Virus record (IMG/VR): IMGVR_UViG_3300048904_000202
Span: 68,007 to 132,006 of that record
Strand: one strand, 5' to 3'
DNA from: a virus
Taxonomy: Duplodnaviria; Heunggongvirae; Uroviricota; Caudoviricetes
DNA: 64,000 nt
Shown: piece after piece, positions 11,385 to 49,710 of the stretch
Numbering within the stretch: position 1 is the first letter of the stretch
Layout of the letters: the number at the start of each line of letters is the position of its first letter
The notes under the pieces: model-generated
The model's input: only the letters and a program-made list of their open reading frames with translations
What the model was told of the DNA's origin: nothing
Database searches by the model: none
Made by a program: the position numbers and the translations under genes

Positions 11385-11787
11385 CGTCTGTGTCTCCCTG
11401 ATTCGTTTGCAATAAAGCCCACGTAGGACGAATCTTTTGGTCAGTCAACAGGGAAATCCACTTTTCCAAGCGAGCGACGATCTTAGCGTGCCCTTTCTCT
11501 GCTTCGCCCCACGTCTCGTAGCGGTCGAGCAGGAGCAGGTGTTCTCCTTCCGCGTTCTGAATCGAGACCTCGCGACCGTCGTCCTCGTGGAAAACCATCG
11601 TCTCGTACAGACGCGGCGCCCGGCCGATGGCATGATCGATGCCGAGGAATACGGTAGAGACCCAGAAGCCATAATCGAGATCAGTACGAGCGACCTTGCG
11701 GTCGGCGGTTTCAAACCAACGCGCCCACGCCATTAGGTCGTCCTCAGGGATAGCAAGCTTTCCCATGAGGATGTATTGGCCGGTCAT
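11377..11787 (-). CDS. hypothetical protein
   Basis: 136-aa ORF; its 3' end is encoded by the promoter cassette. Confidence 0.5.
   Translation of the reverse strand: MTGQYILMGKLAIPEDDLMAWARWFETADRKVARTDLDYGFWVSTVFLGIDHAIGRAPRLYETMVFHEDDGREVSIQNAEGEHLLLLDRYETWGEAEKGHAKIVARLEKWISLLTDQKIRPTWALLQTNQGDTDDD
11385..11450 (-). promoter_or_regulatory. conserved promoter-leader cassette (TTGACT-N17-TACGTG ... GAATCAGGGAGACAC)
   Basis: rc reads GTTGACTGACCAAAAGATTCGTCCTACGTG...ACGAATCAGGGAGACACAGACGATG; overlaps the last 25 codons of the upstream gene. Confidence 0.5.
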
Positions 11788-11954
11788 TCGGCTGTCCTGA
11801 TCTCAATCTTGACGTGTCGGCGAGGCTTTGGGCCGGTGATCTGACCGATACGTTGCTTACTAATACCGTACTCTTTGGCGAGGGATACCAACGACTCACC
11901 GGCGGCGCGACGTGTCTTGATTGTTTCGTTTCTGGCTCGGGTGTCTGACATCAG
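11784..11954 (-). CDS. small HTH protein (56 aa)
   Basis: Below ORF-track cutoff; TGATG and ATGA overlaps with neighbours; LVSLAKEYGISKQRIGQI resembles a resolvase/sigma-r4-type HTH. Confidence 0.35.
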   Translation of the reverse strand: MMSDTRARNETIKTRRAAGESLVSLAKEYGISKQRIGQITGPKPRRHVKIEIRTAE

Positions 11955-12397
11955 TGCGTCCGGGTGTTCGGGTCCAGCTTGCGCTTCGCCATACCTACAC
12001 GCAGCCGGGCTTTGATCTCCTTAACCAGCGGGAGATTGTTGATCTCGATCTGGGCGGCGCGGATCGACTTCGCTTCGAGCGGGAACATCTCGGTGCGGGT
12101 TCCGCCGGACTCGCGAGTCGCCTTGATCCAAAAGTACGGCATCTTGGTGATGCCGTGGAGGGCGAGCGCCGTCGCGGCGACGAGTGGGAAGTTATGAGTG
12201 ATGATGCCCTCGACGATGGTCGCCTGTAACGCTCCGATCGCGCCTGACGGCATGGTCAGGATCGCGGAGAACTGCGCCATCACCGCGTCCTTGTGTAGCG
12301 CCTTGTCATCGACGATGAAGAACCCCTGAAACTCATCGAGGTGCGGTAGCACTACGGCGCCGTAGCCGATGGTGTTGGGCGGGATGTCTCCCATCAT
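11951..12397 (-). CDS. hypothetical protein
   Basis: 148-aa ORF, overlaps both neighbours by 4 nt. Confidence 0.5.
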   Translation of the reverse strand: MMGDIPPNTIGYGAVVLPHLDEFQGFFIVDDKALHKDAVMAQFSAILTMPSGAIGALQATIVEGIITHNFPLVAATALALHGITKMPYFWIKATRESGGTRTEMFPLEAKSIRAAQIEINNLPLVKEIKARLRVGMAKRKLDPNTRTH

Positions 12398-12759
12398 CTG
12401 ACTCCGTATTTTTCGAATCGCTCAATGTACCGGTCTAATAGGTCCCTAGTGTATTGCTCGCGCCTTGCAGGCCAGTCTACTCCATTAGGATTGGCTGGTT
12501 TTTCAATCAATCGTTGGATCGCTGTGCGCAGAGCGCCAATCTCAGTGTTAAGACGATGACGGTGATGGTGTTCCGCCTTCCATGCGACCGCCTTATCGCG
12601 ATGATGGGACGGATTCTTGGCCTTATAGTCTCGTTGCCTCTCTTGCATCGTTATGACGTGTTGAGCGCCAATCTGCGCCATCCATTCGAGGTCGGACAGG
12701 CTGGTGCGATCCTTGAGAGCGGCGAGTACCTCTTCGGCCGCACGACGTTTGCCTTTCAT
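12394..12759 (-). CDS. hypothetical protein
   Basis: 121-aa His/Arg-rich ORF. Confidence 0.5.
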   Translation of the reverse strand: MKGKRRAAEEVLAALKDRTSLSDLEWMAQIGAQHVITMQERQRDYKAKNPSHHRDKAVAWKAEHHHRHRLNTEIGALRTAIQRLIEKPANPNGVDWPARREQYTRDLLDRYIERFEKYGVR

Positions 12760-13121
12760 TCAGCATCGTCCAGCGGTTCCGGGCGATGGTCGGGCTTGTT
12801 CTCGTCGATTGTATCCGTATCGTCGTAGACGTGCCAGACCGCATCTTCCTGAGTGTATTGGACATCCTTTAGGCGCGATCCGAGCTTCGTGTATTCGAGC
12901 CGCGCGATCCGCACCTCTCCCGTCACGTCGACCGGAACCACCATGCGGGCGAAATCGACCGCTTCGGCGAAGGTACGGAAGTCTCCCGTCTTCTGGAACT
13001 GGTGTTCCTCCACATAATCGAACAGGGCTTCGCCTTCCTTCCAACCACGCTTCGCCGCGAGCGCGTATCCGTCCGCTTCTGGGTTCCACGAGACGACGTA
13101 GGGGTTAAGCGGCCGGCTCAT
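12756..13121 (-). CDS. hypothetical protein
   Basis: Start revised to MSRPLNPYVV (ATGA overlap). Confidence 0.45.
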   Translation of the reverse strand: MSRPLNPYVVSWNPEADGYALAAKRGWKEGEALFDYVEEHQFQKTGDFRTFAEAVDFARMVVPVDVTGEVRIARLEYTKLGSRLKDVQYTQEDAVWHVYDDTDTIDENKPDHRPEPLDDAE

Positions 13122-13499
13122 AGCGGGACGTTCCATCCCTTGCGCTCGAACTGCCACGCATCCGCCGTGAAGTCGGTGGTATAGGCGACCTTATTCCTCT
13201 TGAAAGCCCACACCGGGCCGCCACCGGTGCGGAAGGTGTTGGCGATCTCCGTTGCCGGCATTTCACGGTAGAACCCGATACGAATCAGGATCGTTCGACA
13301 CGCGTCGATCATTCGCCGGTCGCGGTTGTCCTCGGCGGCCCGCTCGACATCAAACAGCACCGACAGCATGTCCCAAGTGTGCCCCTCATCGTTCTCGAAC
13401 TCGATGTCGAGTTGGTATTCGAGTTCCTGTATCAGGAACTCGGGGGCTTCGGACTGGATGAGCGCGATGGCGTCTTGGCGAGTGATGATCTCAGGCAAC
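13118..13499 (-). CDS. hypothetical protein
   Basis: Start revised to TTG overlapping upstream stop. Confidence 0.4.
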
Positions 13500-13703: not shown

Positions 13704-14143
13704 TAGGCCAGCACCTTCACGTCGGCGCGATATCCGCCTTCGCGCGTCCAGAGTGGAACGTTGCTGCCCTCGCCATAGCCTTCGATAAAGTGCATCCTGC
13801 CGGCGTTCACGTAGACCGTAACGTTGCCGAAAAGGTCGCGATTCGAGTCACCACGCCAGCGGATATAGAAGTCGAAGATGCCGCGTCCATTCGGGTCGAG
13901 TTCGACGCCGGCACGAAAGTCCGACCAAAAGCCATAGTCGTGCAGATCGGTGTCGTTGAAGTCGTCGGCATGGTTGGTAACCAGCGCCGCGTTGATCGAC
14001 GTAGGCTTACTGGTGTCCTCGATGTTGCACCGGATGCCGGGCTCCAACAGAATGCTGTTGAAGGGAGGACCTGAGTCACCGCCCTCGTGCAAGGCGCACA
14101 TCTTGATGATCTCGATCTGCTCAGGCGTGGGCTTGAACTTCAT
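13703..14143 (-). CDS. hypothetical protein
   Basis: 146-aa ORF beginning right after CGACAGGGAGACACAAC leader. Confidence 0.55.
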   Translation of the reverse strand: MKFKPTPEQIEIIKMCALHEGGDSGPPFNSILLEPGIRCNIEDTSKPTSINAALVTNHADDFNDTDLHDYGFWSDFRAGVELDPNGRGIFDFYIRWRGDSNRDLFGNVTVYVNAGRMHFIEGYGEGSNVPLWTREGGYRADVKVLA

Positions 14144-14208
14144 GTTGTGTCTCCCTGTCGTTGCTGACGCGAATCATCTAGGACAAATCTTATGGTCTTG
14201 TCAAGTGG
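14144..14208 (-). promoter_or_regulatory. conserved promoter-leader cassette
   Basis: rc: CTTGACAAGACCATAAGATTTGTCCTAGATGATTCGCGTCAGCAACGACAGGGAGACACAACATG in a 65-nt intergenic spacer. Confidence 0.5.
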
Positions 14209-14430
14209 TCATACGCCTTGCTTGATAAGCTCGGCCAGACGCTTTTCTCCGGCAGGGAGAATGTAAGCGGAACCGATTTGCCAACCGGTCAAGCCCCGTT
14301 TTTGGAGGTAACAATACTGGCTGTAGAACGGCTTGTGTCTGAACGGTTGCTTCGCCATCTGGAGCAAGCGGCGCTCCCGGAGCGGGGACATGGCCGTAGT
14401 GCGGTATTCATCCTCTTCGACCGGTCTCAC
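14209..14430 (-). CDS. small conserved protein, paralog of 26961-27187
   Basis: 73 aa; shares RERRLLQxAK...YSQYxxLQxxGLTGWQIGxAYILPAGExRLAxLIxQGV with the 27.0-kb copy. Confidence 0.5.
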   Translation of the reverse strand: MRPVEEDEYRTTAMSPLRERRLLQMAKQPFRHKPFYSQYCYLQKRGLTGWQIGSAYILPAGEKRLAELIKQGV

Positions 14431-15513: not shown

Positions 15514-16779
15514 TCACGCTGCCTCCTTTTCCTGAGTGATGATCTTCTCCAGCTTGCACCGATTCAAGCGCGTCTCCTTGACGCCCTTGTACTCGGCATG
15601 GTCCTTGACGGTCCCGACCAGTTTGACCCGATCGCCGCGACCGATCCCCTCGACGTTGACGCCGCCGGCCGAGGTCATCCACGACAGCTTCTCGCCCTTG
15701 TCGGTGAAGAAGGTGTAGACCGAGCAATCTCCGAAACGATCGGCCGGCAGTGCGCGGATAAAATCCACGACCGCCTCGACAGTGATGCGCTCGCCGGGTT
15801 TGCCGACATGCTGCGACGCCGGGCGGTCGGTGCCTTCCTTGGCGCGCCGCTCCGCCTCCAGCTTGCGGCCCAGAGCCCGCTCGTATGCCGGCACCGCAGA
15901 GCAGACATAGCCCATGCGGTTCGCCTTCACGTCGGTCGCCGCGAGGAAAAGCTTGAGATTGTGGAGGTAGTCGGACGGGCCGGGGACAAGCGTCTCTCCC
16001 CACGCGATCACCGCGTCGGCTCGCTCGTAGTGCTTCTGCTCATTGGCACGAAGCTCCGCAACCAGCGCGTTGTAGCGAGCCCGCTCATCCTTCGTGAATC
16101 CTACCTGATTGGTGGCGTACAGAAGAGCGACACGACCCTGCGTGGTGTCGCCGAAGTCGTGTCCGCCGCTCTTTGGAGCCCAGCCCCAAAGGTCGATCGC
16201 CGCAGAGGTCGCGGCCAGAAGCTCGCGAGGGATGCGCCACCAGTCACGGTAGGACGAAAAGCCCCAGCCGTCGTCCTTTTCGCCGTTGTTGTCGAGGCTC
16301 TTGGCCCACTGGAAAATCCACAGCGCCTTCTCGGGCGTGTCGATCCCTAGATAGTCGCGCAGGCAGGTGCGGCCGACGATGACCATTTTATCGTCCTCGC
16401 GGACGATGAAGCCATGGGCGCGGTCGCGGGCCGTATTGCAATGCTCGCAGGTGCCGGCCCAAGCTCGGCCGAGTTCGCCCACCGAGTCGTCGATGCCGGG
16501 CACCTTGTCCACGATCACACCGCCGGCCTCGCGAGTCAGGCGCGCCATCAGCGTGTGGTTGCCCACGCGCGGAGCTTCGCCTTCGACGGTCACGTCGATG
16601 AACCACTCGGTGTACTTCTTCTTCTCGCCGAAGAAGTTGATGGTCTCGCGCTCCTCGCCGCGCGGTTCCGCGAACGAGTAGGTGATGACGTGACCATAGC
16701 CGGCCGCCTTCTTGACCAGCTTGTCCAGCTTGGCCTTGGCAGCTTCCTCGTAGTCGGCCCTGATCGTAATCGTGGTCAT
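15514..16779 (-). CDS. hypothetical protein (421 aa)
   Basis: Long ORF starting directly after GAATCAGGGAGACACGCT leader. Confidence 0.6.
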   Translation of the reverse strand: MTTITIRADYEEAAKAKLDKLVKKAAGYGHVITYSFAEPRGEERETINFFGEKKKYTEWFIDVTVEGEAPRVGNHTLMARLTREAGGVIVDKVPGIDDSVGELGRAWAGTCEHCNTARDRAHGFIVREDDKMVIVGRTCLRDYLGIDTPEKALWIFQWAKSLDNNGEKDDGWGFSSYRDWWRIPRELLAATSAAIDLWGWAPKSGGHDFGDTTQGRVALLYATNQVGFTKDERARYNALVAELRANEQKHYERADAVIAWGETLVPGPSDYLHNLKLFLAATDVKANRMGYVCSAVPAYERALGRKLEAERRAKEGTDRPASQHVGKPGERITVEAVVDFIRALPADRFGDCSVYTFFTDKGEKLSWMTSAGGVNVEGIGRGDRVKLVGTVKDHAEYKGVKETRLNRCKLEKIITQEKEAA

Positions 16780-16861
16780 AGCGTGTCTCCCTGATTCGCT
16801 CGTTGCGACTCAGGTAGGACAAATCTTAGGTAGTGTCAACCGTTCACGTGTTCGACCGCCT
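16780..16861 (-). promoter_or_regulatory. conserved promoter-leader cassette
   Basis: rc: GTTGACACTACCTAAGATTTGTCCTACCTGAGTCGCAACGAGCGAATCAGGGAGACACGCTATG. Confidence 0.5.
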
Positions 16862-17065: not shown

Positions 17066-17147
17066 GCTGCCCTCATTTATTATTTAAGCTCGTTTAGTAC
17101 ACATGTCCCTAAAGAGGTCAACGCGATTACATCAAATGGCGTAGCGT

Positions 17148-18234: not shown

Positions 18235-18452
18235 AATTTCAAGTGTTCCCCGTTACAGGCCTTGGTCAACCAGAGCGCTCCGATGACCGGTGGGTGTTGA
18301 TGCCATGGTTCTCCACAGACCTCGCACAAACAGTTCTGATCTGTCCGCCTACACTCACAAGCATCGAACCTGATGCGGTCTTCCTCCGACAGCAGATGAT
18401 AGGCATTGCCATTATGGTCATGCTGTTGTCGGAGGTCGAAAGGTATCATCAA
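18231..18452 (-). CDS. Cys-rich small protein
   Basis: 73 aa with CECRRTDQNCLCEVCGEPWHQH cluster; ATGA overlap with nadV. Confidence 0.45.
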   Translation of the reverse strand: MMIPFDLRQQHDHNGNAYHLLSEEDRIRFDACECRRTDQNCLCEVCGEPWHQHPPVIGALWLTKACNGEHLKL

Positions 18453-19945
18453 GCCGGCGTCGCCGGTTGTGACCGCCAGAAGCGGGCGGCCTCGCGGACC
18501 TGCTCGAAGGTAGGCGGGTTCACCAACTCGCCGTTCTCAAAGCTGGTCTGCAACCAATCCCGCTCGCCGGACTGGAGTTCGTCCGGATGGATCGTGACAA
18601 ACGTCTCGTACGGCTCCGGAAAATGGTCAACCGTCCGGCGGACGACCGCGAAACGGCCGGCCTTTGACCGCTTGGACGGATCGGTAGCGACTTCCTTGCG
18701 GATCGCGAAGACGTCGCCGTCGATCGTCACCTCCGATGCCTTCAAGGCGAAGCGATGCGTATCGCGCTCGACCTCGTGCATCATCAAACCGCCACCGGAG
18801 CCGAACACGAGATTGTCGACCGACCACTTACGATAAGCGACGCGCTGGAGAATGCGGCGAAGGGACTCTTCGTTGATCCCGTCGCCTTGAATTAGCCGCA
18901 CGTAAGCCGGCAGTACGCGGTAACCCTTCTCGTTCATCATCCAGCCGGTGTGCTTACCGATCAGATCGAGACAGTGACCGACGTTGTCGACTGGATCGCC
19001 CGAGTCTGGCCGCAAAACCAGCGACATGTTCGAGTCGATCAGCTTCTCCCGTAGACCACAACCGCCCTTGTTCTGCGGCGTCAGCCACATGTTGATCGCG
19101 TTGTCCTGATCGTAGGTATCGATCACAACCGAGACCGGATAGCGACCGCCGAGCGGATTAACCTCTTGGCCGAACTGCTCGATGATGTGTTCGAAGAACG
19201 CCTGCTCGTTGTCCTTGCCCCACGACGTAGTCACCGAGTGTTCCGACGCCGGGATCGAATATCCGAGCATCGCGTCGGTGCGATAAGTGTGCTGGCCGAA
19301 CAGGATACCCATAAGGTTATCGGTCACTTGGAAGTTGACCAGATGAGCCATACCGGAGACCGCTGCGTCCTCAGTGGTGCGGCAACCGCGTGCCGAGAAG
19401 TCGACGACCTTGAACTCGGCCGTACCTTCGGTGCCGGTTTCGGCCAGATACCGCTCGATCAGCCGCCACCAGCGCATGCCACGCGTCGCGATCGTGGTGG
19501 GCATCCAGCAGCGCATGAGGAGCGTTTCGACCGTGATGCACAGGCCGGCGCAGTCCGGATCGAGCGACTCGACCGTCGCTAGGACCGTGCCCTGTGGAAC
19601 GACGACGCCTTCCGGAAGCTGCTTGACGCGCATCGGCAGCTTTCCGCCATGACGTTCCCAGACGATCATAGCCGTATCGGCATCGAACGGCACGCCGTGT
19701 GCCGGCAGGAACTTGGCGGCGTGGTTGATGAATTTCGGCGTCCAAAGCTGGGTCAGGAAGTACCGAAGCGTGTAGGTATTGCCGAACCACATGACTTCAT
19801 TGAACTCACCACCCTTCCGGGCTTCGAGATAGCCGTACTCTGCGGTCAGGCCGGGATGTTGGAACTTCCAGTGGGACGCCTTGTAGGTGTCCTTGTTCAT
19901 GATCGGCTGCGTCAGAAGCTCGCCGATATTATCAATATATTCCAT
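18449..19945 (-). CDS. nadV: nicotinamide phosphoribosyltransferase (NadV/NAMPT)
   Basis: 498 aa; N-terminal NKDTYKASHWKFQ (DSYK-type motif) and NAMPT-like length; AAGGGAG RBS. Confidence 0.85.
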   Translation of the reverse strand: MEYIDNIGELLTQPIMNKDTYKASHWKFQHPGLTAEYGYLEARKGGEFNEVMWFGNTYTLRYFLTQLWTPKFINHAAKFLPAHGVPFDADTAMIVWERHGGKLPMRVKQLPEGVVVPQGTVLATVESLDPDCAGLCITVETLLMRCWMPTTIATRGMRWWRLIERYLAETGTEGTAEFKVVDFSARGCRTTEDAAVSGMAHLVNFQVTDNLMGILFGQHTYRTDAMLGYSIPASEHSVTTSWGKDNEQAFFEHIIEQFGQEVNPLGGRYPVSVVIDTYDQDNAINMWLTPQNKGGCGLREKLIDSNMSLVLRPDSGDPVDNVGHCLDLIGKHTGWMMNEKGYRVLPAYVRLIQGDGINEESLRRILQRVAYRKWSVDNLVFGSGGGLMMHEVERDTHRFALKASEVTIDGDVFAIRKEVATDPSKRSKAGRFAVVRRTVDHFPEPYETFVTIHPDELQSGERDWLQTSFENGELVNPPTFEQVREAARFWRSQPATPA

Positions 19946-19957
19946 GTCGGCTCCCTT

Positions 19958-21047
19958 CTAAATGGTCAGATCGCGGAACGAGTTCAGGTAGAACTCGAAC
20001 GGATTGTAATGATCCTCGAACAGCATCGAGCGGACCACCTCGTCGGTATTCCACCACCGTGCCTGCCGGGCATCGTCGGCGCCCTTCACGATAGGACGCG
20101 GCAGCGATGCCGGGATCAGCAGGCCGAACGCCATCGAGAAGGTGACTTCGCGGTTCGAGCGCCACGGGTTGTCCAGCATCTTCTCGCCGCGTATCCACGA
20201 CGCGAGCGTGTCGCGGGTGATGAAGTCGTTGTGTTCGACGATGCCGGTTTCCTGATCGACCTCGTCGAGCGCCGCGTCGAGGAAGGTCTGGTAGGCGCGC
20301 TTGTGTCCGCCGGGCGATGCCCAGAGACCCTTGCCGGGCATACGATCGCGCTGCACGAGGCAGACGGCGCCGGCATGGAACATCCACATGTCAGCACACG
20401 GGAACTGCTGCGGATCGCCGGTGTAGGGATTGGGCTGGAACTCGGTCAGATAGTTTTTCATGAACTTGTACTCGTCGCGCATGAGCGCGAACTGAGCCGT
20501 GTTCACCCACTGGCGCAGGAACAGATAGGTGCCCTGCGGAATGATCTGGACCTCCGAGCGGTAGATGCACTCGACCGCCGCTGCTGGGTCCCCGGCGTCG
20601 TAGATCGTGTTGCGGATGTCGGTGGCCGAGACCAGAGAATCGGTCGCACCGGTGACAGCCTGCGTCGAGACCGAATCCCAGCCTCGGAATAGCTTGAGGT
20701 AGTAGGACGATCCGTCCTTGGAGAAGCCGACCAGCGCAATGCGGGGCTCGTGATCGAACGACAGGCGCTTGGCCTGCTCGGTCACGACCTTCTGCACGTC
20801 GCGCACCCAGAGCAGGTCGTTGGCGCGGTCCTCGATCCCGAAGATGAATACGCGATCGTTCTCGGCCGGCGTGAGCGACGCTCGGATCATCTGGCTCACC
20901 TCGTCGAAGGTGTGCGGGTTCTTGAAGTGTGGCGCTTCGTTGACCGATCCGATGGTCACGAATGTATATTGTGCCGCGACCAAGCCGGCGCGGATGTTAG
21001 CGATATGAGCGCTGGTGGGTGGCCGCATCCGGCCTGCGAAAACGCAG
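19958..21047 (-). CDS. nadM: bifunctional NMN adenylyltransferase / Nudix hydrolase (NadM-Nudix-like)
   Basis: TTG start after CTAGGGAGACACAAC; N-terminal GRMRPPTSAHIANI resembles the GRFQPFHxGH nucleotidyltransferase motif; C-terminal degenerate Nudix box GGHKRAYQTFLDAALDEVDQETGI. Confidence 0.7.
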
Positions 21048-21069
21048 ATATCGTGCAAGTTGTGTCTCC

Positions 21070-21531
21070 CTAGTTGTTGGCGATGATGTTCACTTCGATG
21101 CCGAAGCTCTCTTCGAACTTTTTGGCGAGTTCGCGGAGCGTCTTTCGGGCATCGTTCTCGTTGCCGCCAGCAGGTCCAAGCTGGATGTAGGAGGCAACCC
21201 ACGAGGTATTCTCGATGCATACACGGAGGATCGCCTTTTCCAGATTGGTCAAGGGCTCCGCCAGCGTCAGCATGTAGACCATTTCACAAAGGCCCGTGGA
21301 TGCCTCCATGATCGCCTCGCGATTCCAGCCTTCCTTTAGGAGGATCGCTAGCGGGTCTGTCGGGTCTTCCGGCTCGCGCTCCGGGAGATCGCTAATTTGT
21401 GCAAGGCCCCACATCATGGCCTCAAGTTCTTTGGTCTGGAGGCGCAGCCTCGCGTGATTCTCGGTCATATGCACTCCTAAGTTGAGTGCGAGTAGCAGCG
21501 CCCAGCCATTTTTGCTAGTGGGAATGAGCAT
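21070..21531 (-). CDS. hypothetical protein
   Basis: 153-aa ORF; stop TAG overlaps the nadM leader; a 56-aa ORF (about 21534-21704) lies upstream. Confidence 0.45.
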   Translation of the reverse strand: MLIPTSKNGWALLLALNLGVHMTENHARLRLQTKELEAMMWGLAQISDLPEREPEDPTDPLAILLKEGWNREAIMEASTGLCEMVYMLTLAEPLTNLEKAILRVCIENTSWVASYIQLGPAGGNENDARKTLRELAKKFEESFGIEVNIIANN

Positions 21532-22036: not shown

Positions 22037-22284
22037 TGACACGCTCCTGCATAGTTGCCAGAGGTAATCATCTCGCCGATGTCTCCCGCCAGCACAAGAC
22101 CGGTGGTTTCGTCGGTGAGCGTTCCGCCCGCTTTGGCGATAACGCCCTTGAGCGCCTCGATCACCATATCGCCGCCGAAGTCGGACGAAAGTTCGGCGAT
22201 CGTCTGATCGCCCGCCCTGTTCGTTTTCACCAGCGAACGGACACCGCCGTCTACACGGATGAGGAATTTGCCTTTGAAGTACAT
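22033..22284 (-). CDS. hypothetical protein
   Basis: 83-aa ORF beginning right after GAATCGGGAGACGCAGCGAC leader. Confidence 0.5.
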   Translation of the reverse strand: MYFKGKFLIRVDGGVRSLVKTNRAGDQTIAELSSDFGGDMVIEALKGVIAKAGGTLTDETTGLVLAGDIGEMITSGNYAGACH

Positions 22285-22365
22285 GTCGCTGCGTCTCCCG
22301 ATTCGTTTTCGTCGAGTCCGTGTAGGACAAATGTTCGAGTCGGGTCAACGGATTTTTAAGTCCAC
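22285..22365 (-). promoter_or_regulatory. conserved promoter-leader cassette
   Basis: rc: CGTTGACCCGACTCGAACATTTGTCCTACACGG...ACGAATCGGGAGACGCAGCGACATG. Confidence 0.45.
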
Positions 22366-23136: not shown

Positions 23137-25451
23137 CGCCGCCGGTGCTTTTGATCGATACCGTCCTCGTCGTACTCAGCCCAATTCGAGTGATCGGCGA
23201 AACTTCGATTACCGTGGCCGCCGGTCCGGATGACCCAACCAGTCGAACGAGCGTCTGACATGTCTGGTAGCTCAGGCGCGGTCAGCCGGTTGCGGATGCG
23301 CGCGAGCGCCCGCTTCGACAGCGCGACCCGGACGCCGAAGTCCAACTGGTGCCATGGATTCTGGAGCCGCCATTCGAGCGGATCGATCCGATCGAGGATC
23401 GAGTTGCCGGTATAGGCGTCATCCATGCCGGGGTTCCACATGCGCAGAAACAGTGGCAACTCATCCACCGGTACGCCGGTAATCTCGGCCAAGTCTTCGG
23501 GACAGCCGGGACGGACCTGCAAGGCGTAAGTCGATCGGGTGTCGTCGAAGTAGCAGAGGTATGCACCGCCGCGCGATTGCGTCCAGCCGTTGCTCAAGGT
23601 GATCTGCGAGTCGGACATGTAGCCCCATTCGTACAAGCGATCGGTGCCCTTCTCCTTGGTCCACGCCTCGATGTCGATTAGGCGCGAGAAAGTATAGCGG
23701 TCCCAGCCGGTCCAGATTTTGTGAGCGTCCACATTTTTTTCGCCGAACCAGTCCTCGCCAGTCTCGATATTGGCGTCGAAGGCACGCGTGCCGGCGGGGC
23801 GCTTGTGTTCGATATGCTCGCCCTCGGGAAAGCAAGCATAACGCAGCACGTTGTCGATGTTCGCTTCGACGCGCTCGCGGTACCATTTGAGGATGCCGGG
23901 ACGCTCGCGTACGAACTCATCATCGGCGGCGCGCTGGATGCCTCGGGCAAAGTTCGATCGAGCGATGAACTTGCGATCCGCGTCGATCTGCTCGCGGGTG
24001 CCGAAGTTGGTCGCGTTCACCGCATCCACTGGATAGGCACGGACACCTTCCGGGAGCTTTATGCCGAAGGTCGTGTTGACGCCTTTCTCCGTGGCCGGAA
24101 GGTGCGAGATCGCGTTGTCAGTACGGACGGGGACATCCTTGCGGCCCCACGTCTCGCCCTTCTCGACCGGCTTGCTCAAGAGGTAGGGCTTTTCGGTCGC
24201 CACGCCGCCATGGGCGAGTAGGTTCAGGGCCTGCTCGGGCACGAGGTGACCGTAGCGCTCCTCCAGCCACTTGTTGCGGCCGAAATTGTGCTTCTGGTTG
24301 CCATATGGCTTGCCCACATCCTTCTCGGTCAGCGCACCGGTACGAACGTCGTCCACGGCTAGCGGCGCGAGGCGTAGCGGCTCATATCCGGTAATCGGCA
24401 GATTGGCGTTGACGGCCGCCGAGAGGAGGACGTTCTGGTCCTCCAGTCGAAGCATCTCGGTGGTGTAAGAAAGCTGGCGCTGTGGGAACGGCTGGTTCCA
24501 ATACTTTTCGACCAGCAAGTCAAACACCTGAACCAGCCACGCCGCCGTGACGATCTCCAACTCGCCAAGCTTGGCAAACTCGAAGAACTCCGGCTGGTGT
24601 CCGACCAGACCCTTCTCGTGGCTCTGGCGGTACTTGTCGTGATACGGATCGCCCTTCTCATTGTAGCCGATGTTGAGCTTGTCGTAGGGAAACCAGTTCT
24701 TGCCCACGCGCCGACTATGCTCACGATCCGGGCGGCGCGACATCTGCCGGGCGAACGGATGCGTGTATTCTGGCACGTCGGTGATCAGCAGCAGGTTGCC
24801 GCCGTTCCGCAGCGCGATGGCGAAATAGCTCTGGAGTTCGTCGGGGTCGCGGACAAGGTTCAGCGACATGCCACTCGGCATCGAACAGGCGTGTTCAACG
24901 AGGCTGTTGACGTTCCAGTACGAATACATGACCGGGTTGTAGAGCGGACGCACCTCGGGAGGATCAATCTCGCCGGTGAGGAACTGATCAGTCCGCATCC
25001 GGTCGGCCGACTTGAGCGCGTCATTGCGGACCTGCGCGACGTAGGCGTCCTTGCTCAGGAACTCTCCGATCGCGTCGCCGTCACATCCGATATGGACCAG
25101 CGCCTTGCGAAGCTGCTCGCGGTAGGTGTCTGCCGCTTCGAGGATCGTCACGTCTTTGATGAGCTTCTTGAACTCACGGACCTTCGAGATGTAGTCGAAG
25201 ACGTAATCCTCGTCGGCGTCGATCTCGGCGATCGACATCGTGGCCTTCTTGAAATACCACGACGAGATGTCGGCCAGCAGCAGGTAGGCGGTGACCAGAG
25301 TTGGGTCGAGTGTCATCGACTCCTTGATCTCGTCGTTCGCCTGCTGGAGGTTGCGCTTTCCCCAATCGTAGCTCTCGGAGTTCGGGTCCATGCCGATCAA
25401 CTCGAACCACAGGGTGATAGCCCTGTTAAAATGTTCTGCCGAGGTGATCAT
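23133..25451 (-). CDS. large ORFan protein (772 aa)
   Basis: Longest ORF in the window; no Walker or other motif recognised; preceded by a variant promoter-leader. Confidence 0.65.
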   Translation of the reverse strand: MITSAEHFNRAITLWFELIGMDPNSESYDWGKRNLQQANDEIKESMTLDPTLVTAYLLLADISSWYFKKATMSIAEIDADEDYVFDYISKVREFKKLIKDVTILEAADTYREQLRKALVHIGCDGDAIGEFLSKDAYVAQVRNDALKSADRMRTDQFLTGEIDPPEVRPLYNPVMYSYWNVNSLVEHACSMPSGMSLNLVRDPDELQSYFAIALRNGGNLLLITDVPEYTHPFARQMSRRPDREHSRRVGKNWFPYDKLNIGYNEKGDPYHDKYRQSHEKGLVGHQPEFFEFAKLGELEIVTAAWLVQVFDLLVEKYWNQPFPQRQLSYTTEMLRLEDQNVLLSAAVNANLPITGYEPLRLAPLAVDDVRTGALTEKDVGKPYGNQKHNFGRNKWLEERYGHLVPEQALNLLAHGGVATEKPYLLSKPVEKGETWGRKDVPVRTDNAISHLPATEKGVNTTFGIKLPEGVRAYPVDAVNATNFGTREQIDADRKFIARSNFARGIQRAADDEFVRERPGILKWYRERVEANIDNVLRYACFPEGEHIEHKRPAGTRAFDANIETGEDWFGEKNVDAHKIWTGWDRYTFSRLIDIEAWTKEKGTDRLYEWGYMSDSQITLSNGWTQSRGGAYLCYFDDTRSTYALQVRPGCPEDLAEITGVPVDELPLFLRMWNPGMDDAYTGNSILDRIDPLEWRLQNPWHQLDFGVRVALSKRALARIRNRLTAPELPDMSDARSTGWVIRTGGHGNRSFADHSNWAEYDEDGIDQKHRRR

Positions 25452-28566: not shown

Positions 28567-28568
28567 GG

Positions 28569-31145: not shown

Positions 31146-31151
31146 GCGAAA

Positions 31152-35692: not shown

Positions 35693-35764
35693 GATAGCGC
35701 GTCTCCCTGATTCGCTGTGATGATTATGCCTAGCCTCAAGCGAAATGAGTGTCAAGCTAGACTG

Positions 35765-37199: not shown

Positions 37200-37263
37200 C
37201 TCCCGAGTCGTTGCCGATGACGAATCACTAGGATAAATCATTAGGTCCGTCAATAGTCAATTA

Positions 37264-37761: not shown

Positions 37762-38706
37762 TCAGTGGGGCCGAGGGCCGCCGGCCAGCACATAGCTGAC
37801 TTTCTTGGGCTCGTTGTTGTAGATCGTCGCCGACGAGAACATGTGGGTGATCTCGCCGCGATATTCCCACGGCAGATTGACGATGACGACATCGAAATCG
37901 CCGGTGCCCCGGATGTTGCGGGGAAGATCATAGTCGCCGACTTGCGGCCGGACCAGCGTCTTGCCGTCGATGTTGGCCTTGGCCCAAGTCCGAATTTCAT
38001 CGGCGAACGCCTTTGCCTTGGCGTCCCTATTCTCGATCCACTTGCGCCAGCCGGCTTCACCGATCTCCTCATAGGTGCCGGGCCGAGGCTCGGAGGGCTG
38101 GTAGAAAATGATCGAGAGTTTGCCCGGCTTGGCGTCGCGCGCGGCCTTGATCTTGGCGCGCTCCTCGGCTGCTGCGGCTTCGAGCGGATCGTAAGCCTTG
38201 GCAAGGCCCCGTTCCCTACCCGTGACCGGCGTGTCGATGCCGACGATCGTCCCAAGTTTCCAATTATCGACGCGGAACTGGAAGTGACTGACGAGTCCGT
38301 TGTTCCAACGAATGTCCGCTTCCACGTTGGAAATCTTGCTATTCAGCACTTGGGACCATTTGCGGTCCTGCGGCGTGTACTCGACCAACTTATCACCGGC
38401 CGGGCGGTGGTTGGCGTCGTACTGCTTTTCCATGCGGAAAAGCTTGATCACTTCTCCGGCTTTGAGGGCGCGGAGATATTCGACATCCTTGGCGATCTGT
38501 TCGTGCAGGTCCGCGATGATTTTGTCGGTCAGGGTGTGTTCGTACTCGAACGGCTTGTGGTCATAGCCGGCGCAGTTGCCGTGCGTGTAACCATCTCCGG
38601 GGCGCTGGTAGCCGTGGAGGACCATGAGCTTATCCGCACCAACCTTGAACTCGCCGAAGCAGGCTTGGCAGGTGCCGATATAGTCTTCCGTCGTTTTACG
38701 CTGCAT
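37762..38706 (-). CDS. hypothetical protein (about 315 aa)
   Basis: Start revised to MQRKTTEDY right after GAATCAGGGAGACAACAC leader. Confidence 0.55.
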   Translation of the reverse strand: MQRKTTEDYIGTCQACFGEFKVGADKLMVLHGYQRPGDGYTHGNCAGYDHKPFEYEHTLTDKIIADLHEQIAKDVEYLRALKAGEVIKLFRMEKQYDANHRPAGDKLVEYTPQDRKWSQVLNSKISNVEADIRWNNGLVSHFQFRVDNWKLGTIVGIDTPVTGRERGLAKAYDPLEAAAAEERAKIKAARDAKPGKLSIIFYQPSEPRPGTYEEIGEAGWRKWIENRDAKAKAFADEIRTWAKANIDGKTLVRPQVGDYDLPRNIRGTGDFDVVIVNLPWEYRGEITHMFSSATIYNNEPKKVSYVLAGGPRPH

Positions 38707-38775
38707 GTGTTGTCTCCCTGATTCGCTGTCTATGCGAATCAGGTAGGACAAATCTTTGGGTTCGTCAACAGTTCT
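38707..38775 (-). promoter_or_regulatory. conserved promoter-leader cassette with GATTCG/CGAATC hairpin
   Basis: rc: GTTGACGAACCCAAAGATTTGTCCTACCTGATTCGCATAGACAGCGAATCAGGGAGACAACACATG. Confidence 0.5.
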
Positions 38776-40880: not shown

Positions 40881-41296
40881 GCTGTGGGCTCCCGGACGAC
40901 ATTTACTGAGGAAGGCGAGAAGCGCTTCCGATCGTTGAGCGCCGCCAAATAAACCCACACTGTGGGTGAGGCACCGGTCAATTCGATCTTTGAAATTTGC
41001 CCGTATTGATTTGGATATGCGTAATGGGTCGGCGAAATCCGAACGCGATCACCTTCGTTGAGCTTCCCGACGAGTTCCCACTGGCGTGCATGTTCGTCGG
41101 GGCTCGCGTCGGTATTGATCAGAGACTTCTTGAGCTTCAAGACATGAAACGTCGCGCCCGGCGTTTTCTTTGCCAGTCGTTCAGCTTCCTTTTCGGCATT
41201 GTACCGCGACGTGTGCCGGAAGGTAGGCGCTCGGCCCCCTTCTCGAATCACATAGTACGACGGCTTCTCTTCACCGTAGACAGTCTCGATCGGCAC
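40877..41296 (-). CDS. hypothetical protein
   Basis: Start revised to GTG after ACGAATCGCTGGGGGTAAC leader; ORF-track N-terminus is actually promoter sequence (TTGACG-N10-AATCGTCCTACAA at 41297-41362). Confidence 0.45.
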   Translation of the reverse strand: MPIETVYGEEKPSYYVIREGGRAPTFRHTSRYNAEKEAERLAKKTPGATFHVLKLKKSLINTDASPDEHARQWELVGKLNEGDRVRISPTHYAYPNQYGQISKIELTGASPTVWVYLAALNDRKRFSPSSVNVVREPTA

Positions 41297-41574
41297 GTTA
41301 CCCCCAGCGATTCGTTTCGTTGTCGTTTTGTAGGACGATTCCGCAGGTAACGTCAAGCGAGACTCAACATAGACAGAAAATGTGTCAGGGATAGTCGGCT
41401 ATGCGGCTCTTATCGCCTTCTTTTCGGTCTTAGCCTCTCCGCCTCTTGCCGGCGCGACGCAACAGCGCCTTCTCATGTCGCCGGGTGTGGCGGTTGATGA
41501 TCACGTCCGCTGGCTCTTGTTCCTTCTGTGGTGCGTCAAAATAGTCGGCAAGGTTAGCCGACACGATCGAGGTA

Positions 41575-45433: not shown

Positions 45434-45663
45434 TGGCGAAGCGCCTCCAGCATGGCGACTTTCTCGGCCTCCAGCTTGTTGGTATCGATGTCGAAGTGCT
45501 TGGCGATCAGCTTGTCCCGGTTGTGATAGGATGGGTAAAGCATGTCGCCCTCGTAGCGCGCGATGACATATCCGTTGGCGCTCAGCCATTCGATAAAGTC
45601 GCCGACGATCTGGTTCGCGCCGCCGAGTGCCTTGATCTTCTCGTGTTCGGGATACTCAGCCAT
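45430..45663 (-). CDS. hypothetical protein
   Basis: 77 aa with perfect RBS AAGGAGGT. Confidence 0.55.
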   Translation of the reverse strand: MAEYPEHEKIKALGGANQIVGDFIEWLSANGYVIARYEGDMLYPSYHNRDKLIAKHFDIDTNKLEAEKVAMLEALRQ

Positions 45664-45776
45664 GGTCCGATACCTCCTTGATCAAGCCACGCTCTTTGAG
45701 CGCTGCAATGGCACGCTTGACACGCTCCGGGCTGATATCGAGTTCCTGCGCCAAGCGATTGATTTCCGCGTCGCGA

Positions 45777-46475
45777 TCATTCGCCATCCTTCGGACCCTC
45801 CAGTTCGAGCGGCATCACCGCACCGGGACCCGACAGGGTAGCTATGCCGGCGCGATGGATGACGCCGTTCATGTAGCCGTGGATTTCGGCCTTGGCCTTC
45901 TCGGTCGTCTCTTCGAGGTGTTCGTCGAATTGTTTGGTGATGAACGGAATCGTGGACGCGAGCTTGGCGCGTGCGACACGGTTCTGCTCCCTCAACTGCG
46001 CCGCCTTGCCCTTGGGCAGGCCGAGGCTCTCGATCATCGCATCAAGTTCATCGAGAGCTTGCAGAGACTCGGCAGCCGACTTCTTCATCTCGTCCGAGAA
46101 TTGGTCGGCGCGCGCGACGGGGTCCGGCAGGCCGGGAATGAGCTTACCGTTGAAGTGTTGGAGAGTGCACGCCACGCCAGAGCCAACGTTTGGTGCGGAG
46201 ACGAACGTTGCCCACTGCGCCTCGGATAATGCCACCTCGATCAGTTCTTCCTTGCCGTAGTACCAGTCATTCGACAGGTTGCGATGAAGCTCGCTGCGGC
46301 GGATGCTGATCGTCATGAAGGCGTTATGACCGAAGTCGCTACCGTACAGGTTGGTGCGGCCAGACACTCGCGACGCCCCGATCTGGCAAAACGCGGGATG
46401 CCGCGTCACCGACTCGTCCAAGCGGCCGGGACCGATTTCGGTCGTGGTGATGGGCTCTTCGATGTGGCGTGCCAC
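45777..46475 (-). CDS. hypothetical protein (232 aa)
   Basis: GTG start right after CAGCAGGGAGACACATTAA leader. Confidence 0.5.
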   Translation of the reverse strand: MARHIEEPITTTEIGPGRLDESVTRHPAFCQIGASRVSGRTNLYGSDFGHNAFMTISIRRSELHRNLSNDWYYGKEELIEVALSEAQWATFVSAPNVGSGVACTLQHFNGKLIPGLPDPVARADQFSDEMKKSAAESLQALDELDAMIESLGLPKGKAAQLREQNRVARAKLASTIPFITKQFDEHLEETTEKAKAEIHGYMNGVIHRAGIATLSGPGAVMPLELEGPKDGE

Positions 46476-46560
46476 TTAATGTGTCTCCCTGCTGACGGCT
46501 AATCAGCCGTGATTCGTTTAAGATGAGAATCGTGTAGGACGAATCTTATGGTTCGTCAAG
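46476..46560 (-). promoter_or_regulatory. conserved promoter-leader cassette with two hairpins
   Basis: rc: GCTTGACGAACCATAAGATTCGTCCTACACGATTCTCATCTTAAACGAATCACGGCTGATTAGCCGTCAGCAGGGAGACACATTAAGTG. Confidence 0.5.
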
Positions 46561-47868: not shown

Positions 47869-48230
47869 TGACGCAGGAGAAAGTCGCGGTGACCCTTGAC
47901 CTGTTCCACGAATTGATCGGGATCGAGACCGTCGCGGTCGACGAGGTCGAAGATCAGCTTGAGCGTGTCGATCGCCGCCTTGCCCTGAAAGATCGTCAGC
48001 ATCTCCGCGTTGAACGGGATCGGGTTCTCGACGCGGGCGGGCGCACCGGCTTCCAGCGACAGCTTTACCTCGTCCACCGTGGGGAACACCTCGCCGAACA
48101 CCTTCGAGCCTTTGGGCTGATACTGGAACCCTCCGAACACGGTGCTGATCGTGCCGACAACCTTGTTGTCGAGCTTGACGCGGATGCCTCCCAAAAAGTC
48201 TTCGTAGGTGATCAAAATGTGTCTCCCTGT
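47853..48230 (-). CDS. hypothetical protein
   Basis: TTG start 6 nt after GGGAGA in CAACAGGGAGACACATT leader. Confidence 0.45.
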   Translation of the reverse strand, partial: TGRHILITYEDFLGGIRVKLDNKVVGTISTVFGGFQYQPKGSKVFGEVFPTVDEVKLSLEAGAPARVENPIPFNAEMLTIFQGKAAIDTLKLIFDLVDRDGLDPDQFVEQVKGHRDFLLRQWGRG

Positions 48231-48300
48231 TGACGACCGCTGGCCGTGATTCGTTCCTGATGTGACTCGTCTAGGACGAATCTTAGGTATCGTCAAGCGG
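48231..48300 (-). promoter_or_regulatory. conserved promoter-leader cassette
   Basis: rc: CCGCTTGACGATACCTAAGATTCGTCCTAGACGAGTCACATCAGGAACGAATCACGG...CAACAGGGAGACACATTTTG. Confidence 0.5.
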
Positions 48301-48685
48301 CCTTTTTCATCTGCCGCAAATAGTCCGCCGCGTAGCCTCGCATGATCTTCCGTTCCGCCTCAAGAAGCTCTTCTTCTCGGCGAGCCCGCGCCAGACGCAT
48401 GGCCTGTCGCTCCATGTGTTTCAACGTCAGGGTGGCTGGCACCGTCGCCGAGAAGTTTGCGATAATGTTGCCGAGGCCGCCGAAGAACGTGTCACGCATG
48501 TCGTAGACCATAAACTCGATTCGGGTCGGTGAATGGATCACAACGTCATAGGCGAACCACGTCAACTCGGCCGGCTTATTCGCAAGGAAAACACCTCGAA
48601 AGTCATAGGAACTGCTTGTGAAGTGAGGTGTCTCTTCCGCGTAGAGGGTGAAGGGGAATAGCTGTTGGGGTTTGCTCCTGCTCAT
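48293..48685 (-). CDS. hypothetical protein
   Basis: 130-aa ORF. Confidence 0.45.
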   Translation of the reverse strand: MSRSKPQQLFPFTLYAEETPHFTSSSYDFRGVFLANKPAELTWFAYDVVIHSPTRIEFMVYDMRDTFFGGLGNIIANFSATVPATLTLKHMERQAMRLARARREEELLEAERKIMRGYAADYLRQMKKAA

Positions 48686-49404
48686 ACATCCTCCTTCGCT
48701 TTGATCTCGGCGATCAGCGCCGCTCCCCGCTGCTCCATAAAAGCCTTCGCTTTCGCTCGCGTTCCGGTCTGTTGTTCCAGCCGATCGGCGAGCTTGCGCA
48801 GGTTGTCGTAGCGGCGTTGCATGGCCGGTGGCATCTGCGAATACATGGACGGCACGGGTGCCTTCTCGTCGCGCAGAGGCTTGTCGAAGTGCAGGCTATA
48901 GACCTGATTGAAGGCGACAAACATGTCGCCGACGAACCGCTCCAGCGCGTGAGCCCATACCGGGTCGATCTTCCCGGCCGGGGCGCGGAACATCATCGCG
49001 ACGCCATAGGCACCCTCGAACGTGTCGAGGAGATAGTTGTCGAGTTGGTGGTAGCCGTAGTCGCTCCGGCCGCCGTACTTGCACAACAGGTCGATATGCT
49101 CGGCGCGATATAGGCGCTCGCGGCGCTCCAGTTCGTTCTCGATCCGAATCGTGCGTGCGAAGTCGTCGTCGCGGTTCCACTCCGCATCCATCCGCGCCAG
49201 ATCGGAGATGTTGATCGGACCATCGAAGTCCTTGGTGAGCTTGTGTGCTGGGACGACACAGCCCTTGCGGTTCCACACGTAGTTCGTGCCGCTGTCGGTG
49301 AAGATGCTGTACAGCGCGACCGGCCGCGACGGATAGAGCGTCGGGTAGGTCAGCATCATCTCACGGACCAGCACGTCCACCTTGTTCAGAGGTGCGTCGT
49401 TCAC
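48682..49404 (-). CDS. hypothetical protein (about 240 aa)
   Basis: GTG start in GTGA overlap with upstream 79-aa gene; ORF-track version (364 aa) reads through that gene and the promoter. Confidence 0.45.
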   Translation of the reverse strand: MNDAPLNKVDVLVREMMLTYPTLYPSRPVALYSIFTDSGTNYVWNRKGCVVPAHKLTKDFDGPINISDLARMDAEWNRDDDFARTIRIENELERRERLYRAEHIDLLCKYGGRSDYGYHQLDNYLLDTFEGAYGVAMMFRAPAGKIDPVWAHALERFVGDMFVAFNQVYSLHFDKPLRDEKAPVPSMYSQMPPAMQRRYDNLRKLADRLEQQTGTRAKAKAFMEQRGAALIAEIKAKEDV

Positions 49405-49640
49405 AGGCCATGCTCCCCACGGACGCGCTTGCCGAACGAGATGCCGTCCGCGATCCACATGCGAGGGCGTTGATCTTTTAGGTAGGCGCACATGACGCTC
49501 TCGTTCTCGTACACCAGCCGCTTGTTGTCCTCGGTGAGGAGCGGCGTGTTGTCGAAGATGTAGTAGTGATAACCCTCGCCGCGATACAGCGTGACCAGCG
49601 GTTCGACCTTCTGGATGCGGGCGTTGATCTCGTTGAGCGT
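49401..49640 (-). CDS. hypothetical protein
   Basis: 79 aa starting right after GAATCAGGGAGACACCAC leader. Confidence 0.45.
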   Translation of the reverse strand, partial: TLNEINARIQKVEPLVTLYRGEGYHYYIFDNTPLLTEDNKRLVYENESVMCAYLKDQRPRMWIADGISFGKRVRGEHGL

Positions 49641-49710
49641 CATGTGGTGTCTCCCTGATTCGTCCTGATGCGAATCGTCTAGGACAAATCTTAGGGTGCG
49701 TCAAGCGTCT
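49641..49710 (-). promoter_or_regulatory. conserved promoter-leader cassette with GATTCG/CGAATC hairpin
   Basis: rc: GACGCTTGACGCACCCTAAGATTTGTCCTAGACGATTCGCATCAGGACGAATCAGGGAGACACCACATG. Confidence 0.5.

Follow-up and report, generated by a model that had tools for sequence, protein, structure and literature searches.

A repeated promoter-leader cassette with candidate CcrM/GcrA sites in the accessory-gene arm of a Lacusarx-like phage

The DNA analyzed here is a 64,000-nt stretch of a Caudoviricetes genome (IMG/VR record IMGVR_UViG_3300048904_000202, positions 68,007 to 132,006; hereafter the window) in which one short element, the cassette, recurs in front of gene after gene of a long leftward block. 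What is this cassette, and what is the role of the GATTCG and CGAATC hexamers that recur within it? The cassette is a promoter-leader-ribosome-site unit with sigma-70 geometry, placed directly before start codons. From its sequence it is best read as a host sigma-70-type phage promoter joined to a short leader rich in C and A and to a strong Shine-Dalgarno (SD) sequence. The hexamers had been proposed to form a hairpin. However, their distribution across this phage and its relatives better supports them as probable sites of the alphaproteobacterial CcrM/GcrA system than as hairpin arms.

The cassette is a unit of approximately 60–87 nt, and we identified 12 canonical copies, two divergent promoter variants and one copy consisting of the ribosome site only. 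All are on the minus strand, which is the sense orientation of the leftward gene block. These include the 14 positions and the leader-only copy listed in an earlier interpretation made from the letters of the window without database searches (the sequence-only reading), and their number is far above chance. The core TTGAC-N13-YGTCCTA, with at most one mismatch, matches nine times compared with 0.29±0.52 in shuffled sequence, and the TTGAC-N14-YGTCCTA form three times compared with 0.25±0.54. The leader sequence GGGAGACAC has ten exact matches (0.63±0.76 expected), always on the minus strand and 2–6 nt 5' of an ATG, GTG or TTG. With an nhmmer profile built from the copies, 11 complete cassettes are recovered (E≤5e-12), and the plus strand gives no match.

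Each cassette consists, in order, of a -35 element (TTGAC), a 17–18 nt spacer, a -10 element beginning with TA, a short leader, AGGGAGACAC, and the start codon. The -35 TTGAC is found in all 12 canonical copies and in both variants. The 17-nt spacer originally described is correct for nine copies, but three have 18 nt. Similarly, the -10 begins with TA in 12 of 12 copies (T-12, A-11) as proposed, but the suggested TAGnCn form gives way to a consensus of TAsnyG, with G at -7 in 10 of 12 (TAGACG and TACACG three times each, TACCTG twice, and single instances of TAGTGA, TAGATG, TACGTG and TACAAA). A scan of the window for E. coli-type promoters misses every cassette copy. The Caulobacter promoter consensus GCTANAWC likewise lacks a T at -7. 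The stretch from -23 to -11, AAGATT(C/T)GTCCTA (AAGATTYGTCCTA), is less variable than the -35 itself, with 10–12 of 12 copies identical at every position except -17, where C and T are evenly divided (6:6). In 10 of 12 copies the predicted +1 position, seven nucleotides 3' of the -10, is occupied by an A. At the 3' end of the leader stands (A)GGGAGACAC, and the start codon 2–6 nt further on opens an ORF with coding potential. GGAGAC-type ribosome sites also precede genes that have no cassette promoter, and only the extended GGGAGACAC form is specific to the cassette. The promoter-proximal and ribosome-site parts are separable modules, because in c48296 and c46559 a 20-nt insert lies between them. 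Two other descriptions, an extracytoplasmic-function (ECF)-type promoter (GGAAC..CGTT) and a large perfect palindrome over the whole promoter, do not hold across the window copies.

Cassette promoters are ~2.7 kb apart, and the genes upstream of them often stop within a few nucleotides of the -35. It had been stated that almost every intergenic gap larger than 60 nt contains the element, which overestimates its coverage. Between 10.9 and 50.1 kb, 23 gaps measure 60 nt or more; approximately 15 of them have a promoter-like repeat, and only 10 of these belong to the canonical class (class I); c11448 and c34080 sit in gaps shorter than 60 nt. The gap counts are approximate, as the GC3-based gene caller was too noisy and the Markov-model caller misses small genes. 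Terminator-like sites are not enriched (24 compared with 16.8±4.1; 17 compared with 15.3±4.9), nor are sense-strand terminators in the block, and none lies directly upstream of any cassette, the nearest on the sense strand being at 41562–41544, about 190 nt upstream of c41356. The cassette promoters are therefore mostly nested in read-through arrays, and the division of the block into about 15 independently promoted modules is not sustained. A cassette-free part of the block at 53300–56400 consists of a tandem array of four to five paralogous small minus-strand genes with overlapping stop/start junctions, in which repeats of 97, 63 and 44 nt share 63–84% identity.

To which phages does the cassette belong? 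There is no nucleotide match in INPHARED (megablast, 20 kb of the window). The window is syntenic at the protein level, in inverted orientation, with 99–145 kb of Erythrobacter phage XM05 at 40–68% amino-acid identity. Other related phages are vB_EliS-L02 (L02), Citromicrobium phage RXM and Sphingobium phage Lacusarx. The window phage belongs to the phiCbK/Lacusarx-like prolate siphophages, whose cultured relatives infect Sphingomonadales. The cassette is present in XM05, L02, RXM and Lacusarx, in each case in the same variable accessory-gene arm. In XM05 there are approximately 13 copies, which share a single strand and lie between 103.8 and 137.3 kb, the arm that matches the block in the window. 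We found approximately ten copies in L02 and four in RXM (41 kb examined of each), and at least five in Lacusarx. Additionally, TTGAC-N7-AAGATTYGTCCTA matches 35 stretches in IMG/VR, including several large contigs with four to eight copies each and the same leader (GATTCGCATCAACAACGAATCAGGAGACA..ATG). The spacer differs by lineage: it is cctAAGATTYGTCCTA in the window, CCGGAAGATTTGTCCTA in XM05 and CGGAAAAATTGTCCTA in L02, whereas RXM has the perfectly palindromic TAGGACAAATTGTCCTA. The sequence-only reading had proposed a phage-specific regulon that related phages should share; they do, and by these sequence matches the cassette is a regulon of this phage lineage. The published descriptions of these relatives that were consulted either predict promoters with BPROM only or do not mention them, and the cassette is not described there. 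Searching the literature for the motif strings themselves gave nothing but unrelated primers.

An induced lysogen had been suggested as a source of transcripts. However, Lacusarx and vB_EliS-L02 are called virulent or lytic in their published descriptions. A scan of 185,579 species genomes with CGAATCAGGGAGACAC, a 16-mer that recurs in the window, gave 99 single matches at chance level and no contig with several copies. The same 16-mer gave seven singletons in IMG/VR, and a window-specific promoter variant gave 11 unrelated singletons in a metagenome scan. A prophage source is unlikely given the virulent relatives and the lack of any genome contig with multiple cassettes. The window does encode a tyrosine-recombinase-like ORF, but a recombinase is annotated at a comparable place of this arm in relatives (Lacusarx LAV_00128, RXM_73), and the ORF is thus a trait of the lineage and not a sign of integration.

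The GATTCG and CGAATC hexamers contain GANTC, the target of the alphaproteobacterial methylase CcrM, a feature overlooked in the sequence-only reading. The sequence preferred by GcrA is TGATTCG, or more broadly YGAKTCK; GcrA contacts sigma-70 at the sigma factor's domain 2 and promotes formation of the open complex, and at GcrA-regulated promoters the sites are 'narrowly centered around -20' and 'from +2 to +30' (Haakonsen et al. 2015, PMC4647560). Conservation of both GcrA and CcrM extends widely across the Alphaproteobacteria (PMC9437464), and GcrA homologues are encoded by phiCbK-like phages (PMC3556154). In the window GANTC occurs 151 times compared with 387±19 expected, a 2.6-fold depletion and the strongest among eight comparable patterns. 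The observed/expected ratio (first-order Markov) is 0.39 for the window, 0.57 for XM05, and 0.32 and 0.31 for the parts of L02 and RXM, respectively. The depletion is similar in size to that of Caulobacter, as calculated from the published 4542 sites. Yet the 14 cassettes, which make up 943 bp or 1.5% of the sequence, hold 29 of the 151 sites, a 13-fold enrichment (binomial p ~1e-23), and 22 of the 61 YGAKTCK matches in the window.

The positions of these sites are also regular. The site following the -10 reads YGATTCG on the top strand, while the downstream CGAATCA is TGATTCG on the bottom strand. Across 76 distinct cassettes from all phages the site centres peak at -19 (28 copies), -6 to -2 (47) and +8 to +16 (46), and at least one GANTC is present in 74. 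All 14 window cassettes have a GANTC within 40 bp of the predicted start, and every window copy has either the -19 or the -5 site. The two tend to replace each other across copies (odds ratio 0.22, Fisher p=0.003, not corrected for relatedness). The sequence-only reading counted GATTCG three times per cassette. Three exact hexamers are found only in c26262, although five window copies have three GANTC sites each. Where an arm deviates from the hexamer it stays GANTC (GAGTCG, GAGTCA, GACTCG, CGACTC), and in seven of the eight copies whose arms depart from T/A at the N position, GANTC is kept in a non-complementary form. Sites kept while pairing is lost are the pattern expected if the methylation site, and not the pairing, is selected.

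The pairing itself is not supported in the window, where the GATTCG...CGAATC hairpin had been described as a regular part of the cassette. Of the cells of the window alignment that correspond to the six proposed pairs, 63.5% are paired, compared with 62.4±1.8% after column shuffling (190 of 500 shuffles are as high), and there is no base-pair covariation. The central pair is formed in only 4–5 of 12 copies, and the stem is good in about 5 of 12 copies while 6–7 of 12 have no usable stem. The 5' arm spans positions -7 to -2, ahead of the A predicted as +1, and the cassette's own transcript would lack it if transcription starts at this conserved A. Predicted own transcripts are unstructured, with a mean minimum free energy of -1.2 kcal/mol and a mean z of 0.08 (76 copies). 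It is unlikely, in our estimate, that the inverted hexamers act as an RNA stem-loop, either stabilizing the 5' end of the cassette's own mRNA or, in read-through RNA only, masking or insulating the ribosome site, and we retain this possibility mainly for the relatives. The region from the last base of the -10 to the start codon folds at a mean z of -1.2 over the same 76 copies. A chimera test restricted to the window gave no signal, but in the wider family the signal is weakly positive, as permuted arms reach the native stability in only 71 of 5000 trials for all copies and in 3 of 5000 for copies without GATTCG. Four cassettes of L02 have unrelated stems (among them CGTCTCC/GGAGACG, CCTTCGT/ACGAAGG and CCTTCTC/GAGAAGG) in which the 5' arm corresponds exactly to the discriminator and the 3' arm to the SD, and non-homologous stems occupy the same place in RXM. 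In the window the SD is not part of the stem. There is also one compensatory pair (GAGTCG/CGACTC), and with so few terminators a read-through RNA able to fold should exist.

The best explanation, to which we give somewhat better than even credence, is that the cassettes are host-polymerase promoters through which GcrA/CcrM sites control a class of accessory-arm genes. The cassettes would serve as promoters for RNA polymerase with the host primary sigma factor and give high expression of the first gene of small accessory modules. The transcript would probably begin at the conserved A, and its leader, about 25 nt long and rich in C and A, would be unstructured and contain a strong SD. Responsiveness to GcrA/CcrM is what we infer from the sites. 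GcrA bound to sigma region 2 would use the methylated -19, -5 and +12 sites to favor open-complex formation at -10 elements without T at -7. Such elements would need help with isomerization, the step that GcrA reportedly stimulates; this connection is our own. The gene class would thereby be linked both to how the phage DNA is methylated and to a host cell-cycle regulator. The -23 to -13 element (AAGATTYGTCC) is probably also bound by a lineage-specific factor, because its invariance exceeds what a methylation site needs.

Several observations weigh against this explanation. Half of the spacer (-19) sites are GATTTG and not GANTC, and the 11 invariant nucleotides from -23 to -13 are far more than a 5-bp methylation site requires. 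While the -19 and +12 peaks fit the Caulobacter GcrA promoters, the largest peak, at -6 to -2, falls in a zone that is almost free of sites there. No gene for GcrA or for a CcrM-type methyltransferase was identified in the window (Pfam survey of 121 ORFs, and a regular expression for GcrA), and a tblastn search with a GcrA query, which is weak evidence for XM05, found no GcrA in the window, XM05 or the examined loci. When alphaproteobacterial phage genomes were scanned with a GcrA matrix in an earlier study, the sites were reported not to cluster by position (PMC9437464), although the measure used would miss sites spread across 35 kb. Finally, some copy-specific stem complementarity across the wider family leaves room for a structural role. 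The annotated 'DNA methyltransferase' of XM05 was considered as a CcrM candidate and rejected, as it has no Pfam match and its motifs are ordered differently from those of CcrM (AAGKG precedes NPPY).

The invariance of the spacer element is the point of departure for two other explanations. A phage DNA-binding protein may recognize AAGATTYGTCC as a temporal operator or activator site, with GANTC incidental; we regard this as a real possibility that falls short of an even chance, and it could coexist with the GcrA model. The identity of 10–12 of 12 copies from -23 to -11 goes beyond what a sigma-70 spacer needs, and the RXM element is a perfect 17-bp palindrome, typical of the site of a dimeric helix-turn-helix (HTH) protein. 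However, the left half of this palindrome is degenerate in the window (cTAAGAtt compared with TAGGACAA). Other promoter classes of these phages have different conserved spacers. The same 10-mer is also found inverted in a plus-strand promoter that heads the operon of a conserved HTH-repeat protein, an arrangement kept in XM05 (141853–141870). This protein is homologous to the N-terminal part of the Lacusarx 'SigA' (HTH repeats plus Sigma70_r4), but its HTH matches are below the Pfam cut-offs. It and a 43-aa HTH ORF inside one cassette module are candidates for spacer-binding factors on the basis of their sequences, and the latter may be either a very small DNA-binding protein or only a fragment of such a protein. 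The MucR/HTH proteins of RXM and the 'repressor' of XM05 have no homologue in the window. An operator would also leave unexplained why GANTC is depleted and yet concentrated in the cassettes. Far less probable, to the point that we give it very little weight, is a promoter for a phage RNA polymerase or sigma factor. In this case cctAAGATTYGTCCTA would occupy -17 to -1, transcription would start right after CCTA, and the 5' arm would be in the RNA. A core that is highly invariant across 13–16 bp does resemble the promoters of single-subunit polymerases, and 'SigA' is annotated in Lacusarx. However, a canonical TTGAC is fixed at 17–18 nt from the TA, and no RNA polymerase is found among the annotations of XM05, L02, RXM and Lacusarx. 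Moreover, the Lacusarx 'SigA' has sigma region 4 only, and the window homologue lacks even that.

The cassettes could instead be chiefly mobile regulatory units similar to the promoter-early stem-loops (PeSLs) documented in T4-like phages (Arbiol et al. 2010, PMC2839356; Comeau et al. 2014, PMC4122927), in which the repetition is kept as patches of homology that shuffle accessory genes and the promoter is the entry ticket. The arm is indeed scrambled relative to XM05 while its flanking genes are colinear, as the XM05 positions of successive orthologues along the window illustrate (112.4, 111.4, 118.5, 115.1, 121.0, 120.0, 107.1, 125.0, 126.3, 130.7, 131.8 and 128.9 kb). Orthologues differ between the two phages in their distance from 'their' cassette, by one or two genes. 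The genes directly downstream have no known function, with no Pfam family above the curated cut-off and PHROG families of unknown function. A gene segment of about 200 bp is duplicated at 14205–14405 and 26957–27157 (76–87% identity), and the homology ends at GGCGTATGACCAC, a stop codon plus four nucleotides, after which one copy continues with the -35 of c14204 and the other with the overlapping ATG of the next gene. However, this boundary is also simply the end of a gene. The terminator stem-loop that is a component of PeSLs is missing, cassettes only ~60–80% alike are a poor substrate for recombination, and database scans found no close relative in which breakpoints could be mapped. We consider mobility as the chief explanation to be rather doubtful, and keep host-polymerase promoters with GcrA/CcrM sites as the preferred one.

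Other promoter-like repeats were observed alongside the cassette. A second family in the window, with GTTAGTTTCGCTTGACTTT followed after ~16 nt by TAnnnn, occurs on the minus strand at 7623–7641, 30614–30632, 31138–31156 and 32575–32593. Its copies lack GANTC and share a different conserved upstream element, and the family may represent another temporal class of promoter. An AT-rich intergenic region at 17066–17147 (minus strand) contains TTGACC-N19-TAAACG and an unusual leader, AAATAATAAATGAGGGCAGCATG, unlike those of the other promoter classes. Between 75 and 97 kb of XM05, a different repeat with nearly identical copies, aagtgcTTGACCGAATCGGTGGAGTGACCTAGAAACGAATCACCAACCACGGAGACAGACCATG, precedes small genes and contains two GANTC sites and a GGAGACAGAC ribosome site. 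Contigs of low G+C content (30–42%; IMG/VR L003, L010, L029 and L011; metagenome L150/L152) have a single TTGAC..AAGATTYGTCCTA with a TATAMT-type -10 and no common leader, which may be chance matches or may reflect a broader occurrence of the spacer element.

The window has a G+C content of 60%, and the minus strand carries nearly all genes from about 5 to 59 kb. Table 1 lists the cassette copies with other located features. Further genes identified in the window encode an SPFH protein, a thioredoxin and a lysozyme. The 772-aa ORF that follows one of the variant cassettes is shared only with Caulobacter and Brevundimonas jumbo siphophages.

Table 1. Cassette copies and other located features of the window (window coordinates).
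Feature	Coordinates	Strand	Details
c49704	49641–49704	-	-35 at 49700–49704; -10 TAGACG at 49676–49681; predicted +1 A at 49669; GGGAGACAC at 49647–49655; ATG 49641–49643; GANTC sites at -5 and +12
c48296	48213–48296	-	Extra 20-nt hairpin insert CGGCCAGCGGTCG between CGAATCA and SD; three GANTC; TTG 48213–48215
c46559	46473–46559	-	Extra 20-nt hairpin insert CGGCTGATTAGCCG; three GANTC; GTG 46473–46475; gene is XM05_168 homologue
c41356	41294–41356	-	Aberrant: spacer CGGAATCGTCC, -10 TACAAA, SD GGGGGT; GTG 41294–41296
c38768	38704–38768	-	Best hairpin of the window (-9.8 kcal/mol); TGATTCG at -5, CGAATCA at +12; ATG 38704–38706
c37253	37193–37253	-	Spacer AATGATTTATCC; arms GATTCG/CGACTC, both GANTC, non-complementary; ATG 37193–37195
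c34080	34017–34080	-	Spacer GACTCG (GANTC); no 5' arm; CGAATC present; ATG 34017–34019
c26262	26200–26262	-	Three exact GATTCG/CGAATC hexamers; TTG 26200–26202
c22348	22282–22348	-	18-nt spacer; leader GGGAGACGC; arms GACTCG/CGAATC (GANTC kept, pairing broken); ATG 22282–22284
c16839	16777–16839	-	Arms GAGTCG/CGAATC; ATG 16777–16779; precedes 421-aa phrog_2319 gene
c14204	14141–14204	-	18-nt spacer; TGATTCG at -5; no 3' site; -35 begins 4 nt after stop of upstream paralogue
c11448	11382–11448	-	Spacer GATTCG and CGAATCA; no 5' arm; ATG 11382–11384
Variant 35755	35690–35755	-	GCTTGAC-N17-TAGGCA, different spacer; canonical leader GCGAATCAGGGAGACGC; ATG 35690–35692
Variant 25513	25449–25513	-	TTGAC-N18-TAGTCA; leader CACAGGGAGACTC; precedes 772-aa gene shared with jumbo phages
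Ribosome-site-only copy	21056–21079	-	CAACAACTAGGGAGACACAAC-TTG before NMN adenylyltransferase/Nudix gene; no promoter
Inverted related element	3055–3085	+	10-mer AAGATTTGTC forms the -35 (TTGACAAATCTT); promoter TTGACAAATCTTAGGGTCGAGTCCAATGG follows terminator-like hairpin (region 3020–3085)
HTH-repeat ORF	3960–4421	+	In operon headed by the 3055–3085 promoter
43-aa ORF	45656–45787	-	Overlaps end of gene 45777–46475; HTH_24 above Pfam cut-off (25 bits)
RtcB	31–1221	+	
Tyrosine-recombinase-like ORF	7887–9296	-	Below Pfam cut-off; PHROG integrase 2e-25
NAMPT	18449–19945	-	
NMN adenylyltransferase/Nudix	19958–21058	-	
BCS1-like AAA ATPase	27340–28863	-	

How does the cassette compare with known systems? 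In the T4 genes e, soc and I-TevI a late promoter lies inside a hairpin. The L02 and RXM cassettes are similar in that the 5' arm is in the discriminator, the 3' arm is on or abuts the SD, and only read-through RNA could fold; in contrast, the window stem lies off the SD, and most copies either lack it or have it in broken form. Start-associated sequences (SAS) are near-invariant motifs of 9–13 nt that include the ribosome site, precede many starts, sometimes have an upstream inverted repeat, and are not coupled to promoters; SAS/ESAS were reportedly described in Cluster K mycobacteriophages by Pope et al. in 2011. The sequence-only reading likened the leader to such elements, and the likeness holds for a near-invariant motif with a ribosome site just before many start codons, but not for independence from a promoter. 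Of the 15 cassette copies 14 are promoter-coupled and only the copy at 21056–21079 stands alone, and the sequences and hosts are unrelated.

Like PeSLs, the cassette is a short unit in many copies that combines a sigma-70-like early promoter with an inverted repeat, ends in an SD and start codon, and is concentrated in a variable (hyperplastic) region of small genes of unknown function or ORFans. The PeSL stem, however, consists of polyG/polyC, lies between the -35 and -10 or over the -10, and is a tested terminator, whereas the inverted hexamers of the window are 3' of the -10 and not terminator-like, with no stem between the -35 and -10. The lineage also differs, as this is a siphophage of Alphaproteobacteria. 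With the GcrA/CcrM promoters of Caulobacter (PMC4647560) the cassette shares sigma-70 promoters with YGAKTCK/TGATTCG sites near the start, near -20 and from +2 to +30, in a genome where GANTC is depleted yet kept at promoters. It differs from them in being a repeated phage cassette, in its dominant extra -5 site, and in the GATTTG form of half of its -19 sites. Binding sites for the host regulator CtrA have been described in promoters of phiCbK-like and other alphaproteobacterial phages (Mascolo et al. 2022, PMC9437464), that is, promoter sites for a host cell-cycle regulator in the same broad phage clade. However, the CtrA motif is TTAA-N7-TTAA and is clustered in terminal repeats, while GcrA sites were unclustered in that study.

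Repeated early-promoter cassettes are known and ordinary in large phages, and the new part here is the wiring to methylation sites. Even as a plain promoter and ribosome-site regulon, the cassette aids the annotation of gene starts and operons in a little-studied group of marine and freshwater phages, and would be a source of strong portable promoters for sphingomonads. We suggest only tentatively that a phage promoter class built on CcrM sites in GcrA context reads the epigenetic cell-cycle module of the host. If so, the contrast between injected DNA that is fully methylated and replicating DNA that is under-methylated, or else the GcrA level of the infected cell, would set the timing and strength of about a dozen accessory modules. 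A virulent phage would then possess a methylation-based timer or a sensor of host state, apparently conserved in Lacusarx-like phages of Sphingomonadales. The dozen or so natural variants in the window, and 76 across the family, with or without the -19, -5 and +12 sites, form a test set for a sigma-70 cofactor, and the question is directly testable, as the isolated phage XM05 on Erythrobacter sp. JL475 has the same cassette. If the suggestion is correct, this would be the first phage regulon wired to CcrM/GcrA, complementing the CtrA sites of phiCbK-like phages.

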